Shown: positions 15,768 to 20,569, counted from the first letter of the whole stretch. The stretch is 62,831 nt of DNA, filler included, from Fonticula-like sp. SCN 57-25 (GCA_001724245.1; 8 parts of 8 records of this genome joined end to end with filler, not necessarily neighbours in it), one strand, 5' to 3'. Notes: generated by a model from the letters alone, not told the origin. Program-made: numbers and translations.

Positions 15768-18700
15768 AATCGGCGAAAAAGGAATTAACTTGTCGGGCGG
15801 TCAAAAGCAGAGAGTGAGTTTGGCGAGGGCGGTGTATAGTAATGCGGATGTGTATGTGTTGGATGATCCGCTGAGTGCGGTGGATGCGCATGTGGGTAGG
15901 CATATTTTTGATAACGTCATCGGGCCAAGGGGTGCGTTGGGAGAGAATGGGAATGGGGTCATTTTGGAGGGGTTTCGGGTAATTTATATTGTGAATTTGA
16001 ATGTTTTTGATGTAATTTTATCATTTCTTGTTCATTTTTGACACTTTTTTTGACACTTTTTTGACACTTTTTTGATCATTTTTGATTCATTTTTGACACT
16101 TTTTTGATTCATTTTTGATCCTTGTCACTCTTTTCTCCCTCTTATTTCCTCATTTACTTACCCTATTTCAAGGTCTTCTTCGTAAGAAGGTTCGCATTTT
16201 CGTCACTCATGGCATGCAGTACTTGCCCAAGGCGGACCACATCATATCAATGAAGGACGGTCGCATCGCTGAAATGGGTTCATTCGAGCAACTCATGGCG
16301 GCAAACGGCGACTTCAGAAAGCTCTTTGATGTGCGTATTTAATATTTAATATTGGATATTGGATATTGAATATGATAGGGAAGAATAGGGAAAAGTGTTA
16401 TGGTGCTTGTATTGGTGCTTGTATTGGTACTTGTATAGGTGCTTGTATTGGTGCTTGCGATTGATGGTTGATGTGTGTATATTTAGATTGATGTTTCATC
16501 AATAGTTAATATTTTAGTACTTTTTGTGGTCATATCTGATATATCTTCCATGATATATTTTATCATATTTTGTGTCATTTTCACCTCTTTTTACCTCTTT
16601 TACTTCTTTCTTACCCCTTTTCATCCATTTTTCCCCTACTTTTCACCCCCTTTCCACCCCCCATTTCCATACTAATTCCTCCAATAGGAGTACGGCGGCA
16701 TCCCCGACGAGTCCGACTCTGAATCCGAACCCGAATCCGACCACGTGGCCGACCTCCACACCGACGCCGCCCAACTATCAAAGCCAAAAGACACCCCAGA
16801 CTCTGCCCCTGACGCCGCCGTCCTAATTGAGAAAGAAGGCATGCAACAAGGCTCTGTCAGCCGCGACGTTTACCGCGACTATTTCAACGCGAGCGGCACA
16901 AAACAGGCAATAATTCTCATGATCTCGTTTGTGATTGGTCAGGCCTTCCAAGTGGGCTCGTCATTCTGGCTTTCCTATTGGTCAGACCAAAACTCGAATG
17001 ACCAAATAGGAATGTATCTTGGTGTGTATGCTGCGCTGGGGATTGGCTTGGCGGTGATGACGTTTTTCCAGTCTATTTTGGGGTATATTATATGTGGAAT
17101 GAGGGCTGCGTTGGTGTTGCATGAGGCGATGTTGGGGAGGGTTATGAGGGCGCCAATGGCGTTCTTTGATACTACACCGTACGAGAGGGGAAATATGGGA
17201 AATATGGGAAGAGTAAGGGAAGGGTTATGGGTAGGTAAAGTATGTACTTGTGTATGTGTGTGTATGTGTATGAGTATGAGTATGTGTGTATGTTGTGTAT
17301 GTGTATGTGTATGGTTGTATGTATGGTATGGGTATGTATATGTGTATGTGTATGTGTATGTGTATGGGTATTGTATGTGTGTGATTGTGTATGAGTATGT
17401 ACTTGTGTATGAGTATGAGTATGATACTTGTGTATGATACTTGTGTATGTTCTTGTGTATGTATGTGAGTATGTTCATGTGTACTTGTGTATGAGTATGT
17501 GTATGTACTTGTGTATGTGTGTATGTATGTATGTGTATGTGTATGTATGTGTATGTATGTATGTATGTATGTATGTTTATGTACTTGTGTATGTACTTGT
17601 ATGTGTATGTACATGTGTTTATGAATGTTACTTGTGTATGTGTATGTGTGTATGTGTATGTGTGTATGTGTATGTGTGTATGTGTATGCGTATGTTCAGG
17701 TGTATGATACTTGTGTATGTGTGTATATGAGTATGTACTTGTGTATGTGTATGATACTTGTGGATGTACCATATGTACATTTCTATCATCTTTTCTCTCT
17801 TTCCTCCTCTATTTCCTTTCTTTCCTCCCATCTCACCCACTTCTAGTCTCGGCCGCGTTGTCAACCGCTTCAGCAAAGACCTCAACACCATCGACGAAAT
17901 GCTCCCCCGCACCTTCAACTCTTACTTTCGCACTCTCTCCAACGTTGCCGGCATCATCCTCGTCATCTCCATATCAACCCCAATCTTCCTCGCTGCCGTC
18001 ATCCCACTCGGCGCAATTTATTTCTATGTCCAGCGATACTATCTTGCCACGTCACGTGAGCTGAAGAGGCTGGATGCAGTGACGAGGTCGCCTATATTTA
18101 GCCACTTTGGGGAGAGTCTGAATGGCGTGGCGAGCATAAGGGCGTATGGGCATCAGAGGAGGTTTGTGGAGGAGAATGAGAGAAAGGCGGATGGGAATCA
18201 AAAGGCGTACTATCCTAGTATCGCTGCCAACAGATGGTATGGAAAGGAAAGTAGGGGAAGAAGAGGGAAGAAGAAGGGAATAATGTATTGTATGATAAAG
18301 TGTACTTTATGTGGTTTTTGTGTCGTTGTTGGGTGTTTTTAGTTTATTTTGTGCACTTTTTTGGTTTAATTTTAGTTCAATTTATGTACAATTTTAGTAC
18401 AATTTTGGTTCAATTTTGGTTCAATTTCAGTCTTTTTTGTCTCTTTTTCTCTCTTTTCTCTCTTCATCCCTCTAACACTCCATTTCTTATAGGCTCGCGA
18501 CTAGACTTGAGTTTGTTGGATCACTCATTGTCCTATTCGCCGCCATGCTCGCCGTCATTGCCTACCCAAATATCGACGCGGGAACGGTCGGCCTTTCGCT
18601 GACGTATGCACTTTCGATCACGCAGACACTCAATTGGATGGTCAGGAATGCGTGCGATATCGAGGCGAATATCGTGTCGGTCGAGCGTATCAAGGAGGTG

Positions 18701-20239
18701 CGATATCGCATGCGGGTTTATGGGGAAGTATATTGGTAGTTGTATTGGTAGTGAGTGGTTATAGTAGTGTATTATAGTAGTGATAGAGTGAGGGTATGGT
18801 GACATTATGAGTGTCATTTTTACATTTAGTGACATATAATGTCTCTTTTATGACATTTTCATGTTATATATTGTGTTCATTTTATGTTTCTTTTTGTGTC
18901 ATTTTGTGTCATTTTATGACACTTTTTTCCTCTTTTTATGTCACTTTTTATGTCATTTTCCTCTTTTATGTCACTTTTATATCACTTTTCTGCGATTTCC
19001 TCACCCTTTATTAGTACGCCGCCCTCGAAACCGAGGCCGCCGAGGACCGACCCGACACCACCCCACCTACCACGTGGCCCGACCAAGGCCTCATCCAATT
19101 CACCAACTATTCCACCCGCTACCGCCCCGGCCTCCCATTGGTCCTCGACAATATTTCCCTAACAATAAAACCCGGCGACAAAATCGGCGTCGTCGGCCGC
19201 ACCGGCGCCGGAAAATCGTCTCTAACTCTCGCCCTTTTCCGTCTCATCGAAGGCGCTTCTGGCTCGATCGCGATCGACGGCCGACCAATCGCAGACCTCG
19301 GATTAAATGCTTTGCGTTGTCATATCACAATTATCCCGCAGGACCCATTCTTGTTTTCCGGCAGTGTCCGCGACAACCTGGACCCCTTTCACGAGCACAA
19401 TGATGACGCAGTATGGAAGGCACTGAAGGATGCGAATTTGGAACGTCACGTGACCGGCATGGAAGGCGGTTTGAGTGCGAGTGTGCTTGCGGGCGGTGAC
19501 AATTTCAGTGTTGGTCAAAGGCAGTTGATGTGCTTGGCGAGGGCGCTGCTGAGGAGGACAAAGGTGCTGGTGTTGGATGAGGCGACGGCGGCGGTGGACG
19601 TCGGAACTGGTACGAAAGAGGAAGGGAATGGAAGGGAATGGAAGGGAAGAGGAAGGAATATAGTTGTTATTGTGTGTCAGTTGATGAAATATTGTAGGGT
19701 CAATTTGTGTGTCAATTTGTGTCATGTTAGTGTTGTACAGTGTCATTTGAGTGTCATTGTGTGTCAATTGGTGAAATATTGTAGTGTGTATTGTGTGTCA
19801 ATTTGTGTCAATTTGTGTCATGTTAGTGTTGTACAGTGTTATTGTGTGTCAATGTGTGTCAATTGATGAAATATTATGTGTCAATTTGTGACCATATTTG
19901 ATACTTTTATGCCACTTTTATGTCATTTCCATCCCTTTCATGTCACTTTTCCCACTATTTCTGCCACTATTTCTAACCCACTTCCCATTAGATGACATTA
20001 TTCAAAAGACGATTCGCCGCGAATTCGCCTCGCGCACCGTCATCACGATCGCCCACCGCATCAACACGATCATGGACAGCACGCGCGTGCTCGTCCTCAG
20101 CCACGGAAAGGTCGTCGAATATGACACGCCGGCTGCGCTGCTGGCCAATCAGAATTCAGAGTTCTTTGGGATGGCGCTCGAGGCGGGGCTTGTTGGGGCG
20201 GATGGGACGCTGGGGAGGGCGCGGAGGGGCGAAAAGTGA
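15768..20239 (+). CDS. ABCC/MRP-family ABC transporter, 3' part (end of NBD1, TMD2, NBD2)
   Basis: [97 protein letters not shown]. Seven exons split by long low-complexity introns. Confidence 0.96.
17240..17760 (+). repeat. Intronic (TGTATG/GTAT)n microsatellite
   Basis: About 500 nt of degenerate TGTATG repeats inside the ABCC intron about 17179-17846. Confidence 0.95.
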
Positions 20240-20569
20240 GCGATGTGATTGGTGGAGAAGAAGATTAATGAGTCAGTGTTACATTTTAATAAGAAAGAGA
20301 TAATGGTTGTTTGAGTGATAGTCAGTATAGTATGGACAAGTATGAATAGCATCATATACAGTATGACAATAGTGTGTCAGACGTGTGGTCTATCAATACC
20401 ACTATGGATCACCCACGTCCTCATATGGATCATGTGACAATGACTAAAAGCACCAAAGCAGTATCATATTTCATACCGGTACAATGGGGGTACCGTATAG
20501 CATGGTCGTTCTTATACTAGCTTTATTGAATTGGATAGGTAAAAAGAAAAACAATGACAAGAATGAAGA

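Follow-up and report, generated by a model that had tools for sequence, protein, structure and literature searches.

Introduction

Strand asymmetries have been described both for whole genes and for the surroundings of splice sites. In most unicellular fungi, genes are C-biased at their start and G-biased at their end, with four-fold degenerate sites, amino acids and untranslated regions (UTRs) affected and the cause given as unknown in the accessible text of McLean and Tirosh 2011 (PMC3315797). Lin et al. 2016 (Genome Res, PMC4691745) showed for zebrafish that the pairing of splice sites can be enforced by generic repeats that are complementary between the two ends of an intron, and found GGG close to the donor together with CCC close to the acceptor in 16% of the highly structured introns of humans. 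Here we describe a G/C skew that runs as a sawtooth through the introns and exons of an ABCC-type transporter gene (15769..20239, + strand) on a stretch of DNA of 62,831 bases, referred to as the window, and that recurs at the long introns of three further genes in it. It is related in kind to the strand asymmetries already known from splice sites and from genes. Our tentative explanation, to which we assign slightly less than an even chance, is that selection at the RNA level favours a base composition by which the two splice sites of a long intron are marked.

The long introns of the window resemble those of PMC4691745, as far as its accessible text goes, in bearing complementary simple-sequence tracts at opposite ends, within ~200 nt of the splice sites, with a G-rich donor side and a C-rich acceptor side as in the human class, and in the generic nature of the pairing, which needs no co-evolved sequences. 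They differ in that whole C-free and G-free domains continue 135-200 nt into the exons, where codons and amino acids are altered, in that the arms only equal shuffled arms in stability, and in that exon-spanning pairing is predicted as often as intron-spanning pairing; for the published repeats, co-occurrence was seen on the two sides of introns and not of exons. Both arms being present in every long intron of the window, their co-occurrence is uninformative on intron- versus exon-spanning pairing. With the fungal skew, again as given in the accessible text of PMC3315797, the locus shares the order of C first and G last on the coding strand and the involvement of four-fold sites, amino acids and the 3' UTR. 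There, whole genes form the unit; here, the unit is an exon with long introns on its borders, and genes with short introns or none are unskewed. A term search of that accessible text gave no exon/intron analysis and one mention of 'intron-rich genes'.

In a literature search from which subscription journals were mostly absent, and which is not proof of absence, no report was found of an intron-length-dependent skew reaching the synonymous sites of exons. Transcription-associated strand asymmetry consists in a coding-strand excess of G+T with a single sign along the transcribed unit; here, each exon-intron pair contains two changes of sign. In 2004, Touchon et al. reportedly described, in Nucleic Acids Research (NAR), strand asymmetries at the ends of introns that are coupled to splicing, being tied to splice sites and not to replication. 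Amit et al. are said to have distinguished, in 2012, two exon-intron architectures by differential GC content, dealing with GC content and not with G-versus-C polarity or synonymous gradients. The window is similar to these architectures in having long low-GC introns beside higher-GC exons, and short introns with exon-like GC.

Skew Profile of the ABCC Gene

The window is composed of eight pieces of ~7.8 kb each, arranged by descending length and joined by N44-TTAATTAATTAA-N44 linkers; the pieces look like whole contigs of a draft assembly. The ABCC gene lies in the third piece, its 5' side being truncated by the contig end, and its model was built by hand from open frames and GT..AG borders. 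It comprises seven exons and six GT-AG introns (241, 357, 668, 256, 317 and 382 nt), and joining of the exons gives an uninterrupted frame of 750 codons that ends in a stop. Since Pfam positions run on across exon borders (ABC_membrane 2-95 in exon 3 and 98-224 in exon 4; ABC_tran 1-137 in exon 6), the introns interrupt a continuous ABCC-type C-terminal half.

A 60-nt profile of the skew revealed values of +0.8 to +1.0 just inside the donors and of -0.6 to -1.0 before the acceptors, with the exons starting at approximately -0.3 to -0.6 and rising to +0.4 to +0.75 at their ends. The switch was abrupt in intron 3, where the skew went from +0.60 to -1.00 within ~60 nt (17720-17840); in the long introns, the flip from G to C is typically located ~80-100 nt 5' of the acceptor and not mid-intron. 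Tandem Repeats Finder (TRF) detected tandem arrays in all six ABCC introns, with periods of 11, 12, 6, 11, 10-12 and 10/95 for introns 1-6. A preliminary description of this DNA had stated that the long ABCC introns start G/A-rich, contain a repeat core and end C/T-rich, and both the skew profile and the TRF result bear this out.

It had also stated that codon choice in the exons follows the same gradient. With the protein held fixed by synonymous shuffling, the correlation (r) of G minus C at third codon positions (G3-C3) with exon position was 0.40, compared with 0.02 ± 0.03 in the shuffles (z = 12.0; 0/5000), and the statement thus holds at constant amino-acid sequence. The switch is most easily read from alanine, which was encoded by GCC 17 times and by GCG once in the first thirds of the ABCC exons, and by GCG 27 times and GCC once in the last thirds. 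From first to last thirds, Arg likewise went from CGC (12) to AGG (15), Val from GTC (10) to GTG (13) and Gly from GGC (15) to GGG (12). Long exons have two skewed flanks of ~135-200 nt each around a near-neutral middle, and exons of ~150 nt are without gradient (ABCC exon 2; exon 5568-5714 of a second long-intron gene, g1).

A metagenome contig of 2224 nt (L001) matches the window with 98.9% identity over 17039-19264, introns included, and contigs from four DNA runs (X1, X2, X4 and X6) span ABCC exons and introns contiguously; the sequence is therefore not an assembly artefact. A relative with ~3-6% divergence, present in one DNA run, has kept the same introns. The differences in the contigs of X1, X2, X4 and X6 were few, unpolarisable and partly derived from other organisms.

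Dependence on Intron Length

Two classes of introns are present in the window, short ones of 43-118 nt with a GC content of ~0.5 and long ones of 145-668 nt with a GC content of 0.29-0.38. All introns were predicted, on the basis of open frames and of Pfam matches that run on from exon to exon. The short-intron models were obtained with our own exon-chaining finder, which requires GT[AG][CT]G donors and YAG acceptors; the long-intron genes were curated by hand, as the finder missed or misplaced exons there and set the ABCC exon ends wrongly until retrained. The long-intron sample consists of 17 introns in four genes. Besides ABCC, these are g1 in piece 1 (4890..7787, - strand; six exons and five introns of 170-211 nt with the same polar pattern), TRAPPC10 in piece 4 (25092..30094, + strand), in which introns of 51, 55 and 118 nt in the 5' part are unpolar and introns of 245, 351 and 536 nt in the 3' part are polar, and a RING-finger gene in piece 6 (45282..46941, - strand) with three long polar introns (154, 392 and 288 nt).

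Synonymous shuffling of ABCC, g1, TRAPPC10 and the RING-finger gene yielded z values of 12.1, 12.2, 9.4 and 7.3, respectively (0/3000 each). None of the 12 short-intron or single-exon genes had a gradient (z = -2.7 to +0.5), in line with what had been said initially of genes with short introns. In exons of at least 120 nt, G3-C3 was compared between the first and the last 40%. Long-intron genes showed a rise in 15 of their 18 exons, with a mean change of +0.68, and short-intron genes in 14 of 30, with a mean of -0.07; neither of the two single-exon genes showed one. The difference between long- and short-intron exons had a Mann-Whitney p value of 7.6e-6. The three non-rising exons of long-intron genes were the contig-cut ABCC exon 1 and two of ~150 nt.

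Exon-flank polarity, i.e., the skew of the 100 exon bases upstream versus downstream of an intron, was then related to the properties of 47 predicted introns of the window. Split by intron length, as had been proposed with the preliminary description, it increased with length (Spearman 0.72, p = 1.5e-8); the coefficients for intron GC and for the intron's own end polarity were -0.56 and 0.69. Mean exon polarity was -0.01 below 70 nt (n = 23), +0.05 at 70-140 nt (n = 7), +0.43 at 140-220 nt (n = 7) and +0.73 for longer introns (n = 10). TRAPPC10 served as a control within one gene, its 51-, 55- and 118-nt introns giving -0.09, +0.01 and +0.06 and its 245-, 351- and 536-nt introns +0.60, +1.16 and +1.26. 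The only long GC-rich intron (PPPDE gene, 174 nt, GC 0.59) had an exon polarity of +0.07. As the polarity of TRAPPC10 is confined to its long introns, neither expression level nor a codon bias of the whole gene can be the cause. The skew belongs to individual long AT-rich introns and not to genes or expression levels, and the initial observation is confirmed in a form stronger than first stated. Within 16 listed long AT-rich introns, the first 60 nt were G-rich in every case (+0.37 to +1.00) and the last 60 nt were C-rich in 14 (-0.22 to -0.93), the other two being near 0.

These data bear on the idea that the force behind the fungal skew of C-rich gene starts and G-rich gene ends (McLean and Tirosh 2011) acts here on each exon isolated by long introns. 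The sign is the same, and so is the range of what is affected (four-fold sites, amino acids, 3' UTR), as given in the accessible text of PMC3315797. However, the single-exon and short-intron genes lack the C-to-G gradient (0/2 genes and 14/30 exons, respectively), the first 45 nt of short-intron genes are G3-rich and not C-rich (G3/C3 0.48/0.30, with 0.37/0.46 in the final 45 nt), and the effect is tied to long introns. A gene-wide skew of the fungal kind was not found in the window, where only the four long-intron genes are G-rich at the end (G3/C3 0.55/0.12 in the last 45 nt); the sample does not include the 5' end of any long-intron gene whose first intron is long. We consider this explanation improbable.

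Four-Fold Degenerate Sites and Amino Acids

Over the 135 nt that follow long-intron acceptors, four-fold sites had base frequencies of A 0.13, C 0.68, G 0.08 and T 0.11. Before long-intron donors they were A 0.15, C 0.15, G 0.56 and T 0.13, and before the stop codons of long-intron genes A 0.07, C 0.17, G 0.62 and T 0.14. The baseline of short-intron and single-exon genes was A 0.05, C 0.49, G 0.36 and T 0.11, and the exon middles of long-intron genes, with 217 sites mostly from one exon, gave A 0.25, C 0.23, G 0.33 and T 0.19. In comparison with exon middles, the flanks gain the favoured base and do not merely lose the other one. As G and C swap with T staying flat, simple cytosine deamination, which would raise T or A, is disfavoured. 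The first and second codon positions change in the same sense, and with them the amino acids: Gly, Glu and Val are favoured next to donors, and Ser, Thr and Pro next to acceptors. In exon middles over 200 nt away from either exon end (28400-29000 and others), four-fold GC was 0.56 in long-intron genes versus 0.85 in short-intron genes; the long-intron genes seem to be in a different compositional or codon-bias regime.

Mutation coupled to transcription and splicing would produce such frequencies if R-loops at the G-rich donors of slowly spliced long introns exposed the sense strand, so that C was lost and a GC-favouring force, either codon selection or biased gene conversion, let G build up, with the opposite occurring near acceptors. 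The continuity of the skew across exon-intron borders fits this proposal (four-fold sites +0.58/-0.79; intron arms +0.77/-0.56), as does the 5' part of the long introns, whose sense strand is rich in G+T and poor in C regardless of the strand on which the gene lies; a loss of sense-strand C to T would predict this. Amino-acid usage moves as it would under a general pressure, and the G-rich ends of fungal genes have been ascribed possibly to mutation in the accessible text of PMC3315797. Against it, T is not raised where C falls (0.13 versus a baseline of 0.11), the complementary base rising instead, and the G-poor acceptor side is T-rich and not A-rich. Four-fold GC is 0.71-0.76 in the flanks but 0.56 mid-exon (the latter from the 217 sites, mostly of one exon), so that an additional force acting only in flanks would be needed. 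The switch within introns is abrupt, TRAPPC10 is affected only at its long introns, and the sign flips within the transcript, twice per exon-intron pair; to our knowledge, no transcription-coupled bias flips its sign within one transcript. Taken together, we judge R-loop-coupled mutation to be unlikely.

AT-Rich Segments and Repeats

AT-rich segments were defined by a GC content below 0.42 over at least 150 nt, and 45 of them were obtained in the window. The 18 segments at annotated long introns had a polarity of +0.66 inside (17/18 positive) and of +0.59 in the flanks (16/17), compared with +0.06 inside (16/27) and +0.09 in the flanks (16/26) for the 27 segments outside annotated introns. A generic property of AT-rich DNA was rejected, the non-intron segments being unpolar on average. 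Polar exceptions were clearest in spacers at gene 3' ends (2069-2851, 4539-4922, 30064-30485 and 44845-45295). Throughout the polar units, the sense strand contains more T than A whichever strand the gene is on, and the units are thus oriented with the gene. The AT-rich 118-nt TRAPPC10 intron, which carries T-tract repeats, has no polarity.

A strand-symmetric DNA process centred in long introns has to be weighed at this point, for example recurrent breaks in nucleosome-free T-tract DNA whose ends are resected before strand-biased mismatch repair or gene conversion sets in, by which G would be enriched, on each side, on the strand running 5' to 3' toward the break. The flip is indeed reverse-complement symmetric, the top strand looks alike for genes on either strand, and the polarity would match the two sides of a resected break in the textbook resection model. 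Conversion tracts would account for four-fold GC being higher close to introns than mid-exon, and an overlap of opposite effects for the missing gradient in short exons with a long intron on either side; several intergenic spacers at gene 3' ends are polar, too. Yet neither the average non-intron AT-rich segment nor the T-tract-bearing 118-nt intron is polar, the switch lies ~80-100 nt from the acceptor and not centrally, T exceeds A on both sides, and the units are gene-oriented. We hold such a process to be quite improbable. The initial proposal of a local strand-asymmetric mutational or chromatin process centred on the repeats is weakened by the unpolar repeat-bearing segments outside introns, by the unpolar 118-nt intron and by the G/C swap with flat T.

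The TRF core periods in long introns were mostly 10-12 nt, with 11 being the commonest, or 6 nt. With helically phased T-tracts of the PATC type, ABCC introns 1, 2, 4, 5 and 6 and the TRAPPC10 and g1 introns share T4-5 runs at periods of 10-12 nt; the period-6 introns (ABCC intron 3 and the piece-6 introns) are unlike such arrays. Eight of the 17 long introns have unit families in common with other loci, the families being TGTGTA, TTTTTGACAC and a 20-22-mer.

This sharing, and the occurrence of one architecture in all long introns, would be accounted for if the long introns were copies of a mobile introner-type element that brought its own G-rich and C-rich ends. Introner-type introns occur as many near-identical full-length copies with conserved termini. 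Among the 17 long introns of this one 63-kb window, however, no full-length or terminal matches were found; the between-intron matches comprised simple-repeat units only, with 70-88% identity in many registers and none spanning arms or a whole intron. Moreover, L001 and the relative with 3-6% divergence keep the same introns, and insertion cannot give a synonymous-site skew up to 200 nt away in conserved ABC-transporter exons. A mobile origin of the pattern is, in our opinion, highly improbable.

Splice Signals

Donors of the type GT[AG]CG are present in nearly all introns placed by eye (5/6 in ABCC and 6/7 in iPGM; e.g., at 7999, 8132, 8548, 8865, 9194, 9533 and 9715). Long-intron donors run on with A or purines (GTACGAA), and short-intron donors with C, T or G. 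In the 5' arms of the long introns, GGGAA was found in 10 of 17 (3.2 expected), GAAGA in 9 (2.9) and GGAAG in 9 (3.1), the expectation being calculated from composition. A G-quadruplex explanation was rejected, as the canonical motif was present in 1 of 17 long introns. For the 3' arms of the same introns, a word search returned nothing beyond pyrimidine composition.

Purine-rich splicing enhancers of the GAR type are known, and G-triplet intronic splicing enhancers near donors were reportedly described by McCullough and Berget in 2000. The long introns resemble both in that G-runs and GGGAAG/GAAGA words are concentrated just 3' of the donors. They are unlike these enhancers in that C is lacking from a whole domain, in place of discrete motifs, with GGG runs in the 5' arms lying weakly above composition (z = 1.8).

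A donor-like GTRCG occurred once in 3130 nt of G-rich intron parts, where GT itself had a frequency of 143/kb. Acceptor-like YAG was strongly depleted around the predicted acceptors, with four YAG in 1918 nt of G-poor 3' arms (2.1/kb versus 20.4/kb in baseline exons) and 21 YAG in the first 135 exon bases versus 54.2 ± 5.4 under synonymous shuffling (0/1000). Exclusion zones for AG upstream of acceptors were reportedly described by Gooding et al. in 2006. Similarly, a G-free and hence AG-free stretch precedes the acceptor here; unlike in such zones, the AG-poor stretch also covers ~135 nt of the downstream exon. Two further candidate explanations were abandoned, namely CpG avoidance, with CGCCG-type words being common in the C-rich exon starts, and a remote branch point, which might have explained the length of the G-free arm, with CTAAC, CTCAC and CTAAT candidates being read by eye ~20-30 nt from the ABCC acceptors.

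Pairing and Folding

Duplex formation between the 70-nt arms of the 17 long introns gave -27.7 kcal/mol for cognate arms, -25.9 kcal/mol for non-cognate arms (p = 0.14) and -27.0 kcal/mol for self-shuffled arms (Wilcoxon p = 0.27). These controls preserve the composition of each arm and therefore test the arrangement of the sequence and not the polarity itself. Exon-flank duplexes behaved likewise, with -38.1, -38.0 and -36.1 for cognate, non-cognate and shuffled flanks. Unlike arms are stickier by composition, 5' with 3' arms reaching approximately -26 to -28 kcal/mol versus -15.5 kcal/mol for 5' with 5' and -6.8 kcal/mol for 3' with 3' arms.

Minimum free energy (MFE) folds of the introns with 120 nt of exon on each side were nested end-to-end zippers. 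Summed over the 17 folds, 592 bp were predicted between exon flank and exon flank, 337 bp between intron start and 3' arm and 511 bp within the core. Bridging of the splice sites of long introns by long-range pairing, as suggested at the outset, is thereby partly supported: a generic complementarity driven by composition is predicted, and intron-specific helices have fallen away, cognate arms being no more stable than shuffled arms when folded against these controls. A generic zipper between the intron ends is a possibility that the predicted folds would allow.

Local folding (150-nt window, 100-nt span) predicted the 40 nt before acceptors to be unpaired with a value of 0.75 in long versus 0.47 in short introns.

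Proposed Selection on the Pre-mRNA

Long introns are built as polar units, each having a purine/G-rich and nearly C-free start, a repeat core (~11 or 6 nt) and a C/U-rich, nearly G-free arm. If RNA-level selection for compositional context is responsible, short introns would need no special context. The C-depleted, G-rich domain would mark the donor and the G-depleted, C/U-rich domain the acceptor, with selection on the pre-mRNA keeping both. Each domain would reach ~135-200 nt into the adjoining exon, where it would override the usual preference for C-ending codons and shift the amino acids. Three effects are conceivable and could operate jointly: (i) proteins may bind to the arrayed enhancer-like words and to the long pyrimidine tract; (ii) the acceptor region may be kept single-stranded and AG-free over ~200 nt; and (iii) the donor- and acceptor-side domains, being generically complementary, may draw the ends of a long intron together. 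We infer that selection rather than mutation maintains the skew, and that splicing is the function selected for.

Several points weigh against this explanation. A skew of similar size is continuous through the four-fold sites of exons and the intron arms, as a position-dependent mutational bias would give, and its reach of 135-200 nt into exons exceeds what is known of exonic splicing enhancers. The terminal exons of all four long-intron genes are G-rich at the end despite having no donor there; the preliminary description, which had noted these ends, took them as a sign of a mechanism not limited to splicing, and we find that remark fair. Avoidance of decoy donors was rejected as the cause of the donor-side exon skew, since GTRCG was found four times in the last 135 exon bases with 4.3 ± 1.8 expected. 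On the side of RNA structure, specific bridging helices had to be given up, cognate arms being no better than non-cognate or shuffled ones; a fold of 3552 nt comprising ABCC exons 3-7 placed 240 bp across exons versus 227 bp across introns; and the predicted gain in donor accessibility, with 0.42 unpaired in long versus 0.33 in short introns, is slight, so that a benefit of the donor-side exon skew is doubtful. L001 differs from the window by ~21 substitutions and three gaps, too few for a mutation spectrum, and this limits the case for selection. Finally, the 17 long introns come from four genes of a single 63-kb window, and the set of short-intron genes includes four without Pfam support.

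A wider reading, which is conceivable though doubtful, treats the pattern as a code, C-free around donors and G-free around acceptors, that outweighs codon preference and protein composition as far as 200 nt into the exons. The same force, linked to RNA processing and not to RNA polymerase II phases, would then underlie the fungal gene skew, with each gene or exon forming one processing unit. The locus would thereby open a new angle on that skew, in that its unit may be the processed exon and not the transcription unit.

Synonymous sites are usually taken to be weakly constrained, and splicing-related codon bias in animals is subtle. The Ala GCC/GCG switch within single exons, tracking intron length, is an unusually large and clean natural signal and may be of use for studying the recognition of long introns in a lineage whose introns are otherwise short. 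In practical terms, codon switches within genes mislead gene finders trained on one codon table, and they could bias analyses of codon usage, dN/dS and horizontal transfer in such genomes.

Features of the ABCC Gene

All ABCC features lie on the + strand. Exon 1 (15769..15931), which is cut by the contig end, is G-rich throughout (skew +0.45 to +0.60) and encodes the end of the first nucleotide-binding domain (NBD1; Pfam ABC_tran 104-136). It is followed by intron 1 (15932..16172, 241 nt; GTGCGT..CAAG), G-rich to ~16012 and C/T-rich thereafter, with the 11-nt repeat TTTTTGACACT, end skews of +0.79/-0.71 and the switch at +81. The short exon 2 (16173..16330, 158 nt) shows no gradient, G3-C3 being +0.05 and then -0.10. 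Intron 2 (16331..16687, 357 nt) is G-rich to ~16529 and contains the 12-nt repeat TGGTGCTTGTAT before a G-poor C/T arm (ends +0.88/-0.93).

Exon 3 (16688..17178, 491 nt) has a C-rich start, a near-neutral middle and a G-rich end, with G3-C3 going from -0.49 to +0.38. Intron 3 (17179..17846, 668 nt) consists of a GA-rich start, a (TGTGTA)n core of ~500 nt that is almost C-free and a G-poor C/T arm in the last ~80 nt; its end skews are +0.93/-0.92 and its switch lies at +588, with C at 18 of 588 positions before it and G at 2 of 80 after it. In exon 4 (17847..18236, 390 nt), C-ending codons come first and G-rich synonyms from ~18050 onwards (G3-C3 -0.75 to +0.31). Intron 4 (18237..18492, 256 nt) has a GTATGG donor, a GA-rich start, the 11-nt repeat TTTTGGTTCAA and a C/T arm, its ends being +1.00/-0.80.

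The gradient is moderate in exon 5 (18493..18697, 205 nt; G3-C3 -0.33 to +0.21). Intron 5 (18698..19014, 317 nt) proceeds from a G-rich start through 10-12-nt repeats (ATGTCACTTTT) to a C/T arm (ends +0.70/-0.58). Exon 6 (19015..19609, 595 nt), which encodes NBD2, is C-rich for ~380 nt and G-rich in its last ~210 nt (G3-C3 -0.56 to +0.25). GGAAGGGAAT repeats stand at the start of intron 6 (19610..19991, 382 nt), followed by GTGTCA-type repeats and a C/T arm from ~19891 (ends +0.92/-0.76). The terminal exon 7 (19992..20239) starts C-rich, ends G-rich (G3-C3 -0.34 to +0.48) and contains the stop codon. The 3' flank or UTR (20240..20400) is AT-rich, G-rich and C-poor like an intron start, with a skew of +0.36 to +0.71.

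Additional Observations

A search of 15768-23547 against Rfam gave no family match. Among 79 distant homologous loci (at most 64% protein identity), 20 were inspected and none of these had a sawtooth with AT-rich introns; some showed broad C-to-G drifts.

In TRAPPC10, the region 26767-27487 contains a candidate exon (26911-27030) that is open in one frame and breaks the phase chain between 26458-26766 and 27488-27738; the 145-nt segment before it is without a C/T-rich end. The spacer 4523-4889, between the convergent M28-peptidase gene (+) and g1 (-), resembles an intron-like polar AT-rich unit, and the 3' flank of TRAPPC10 (30100-30320) likewise looks like a polar unit of the intron type, ending with TAG and then C-rich sequence. 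Both have a G-rich start, T-tract repeats and a C/T-rich end, and neither has a clear downstream exon.

A tandem array at 23885-23983 (unit AAAGTGTCAAA) lies outside the gene models, and its unit is common to ABCC intron 1 and a g1 intron, on the opposite strand. Judged by sequence, this suggests a dispersed family of 11-nt satellite-like units.

Features are not readable across the linker at 7788-7887 and the six further joins in the window. Pfam matches on open frames of the window are eukaryotic and comprise ABC transporter, TRAPPC10, Vps35, eIF3e, RPL18, RPL23a, HECT, bHLH, Mob1 and a synaphin-like domain. The last of these, an open frame at 10839-11279, matches Pfam Synaphin (complexin) with an E value of 9.5e-10, which would be unexpected if the organism were a relative of fungi.

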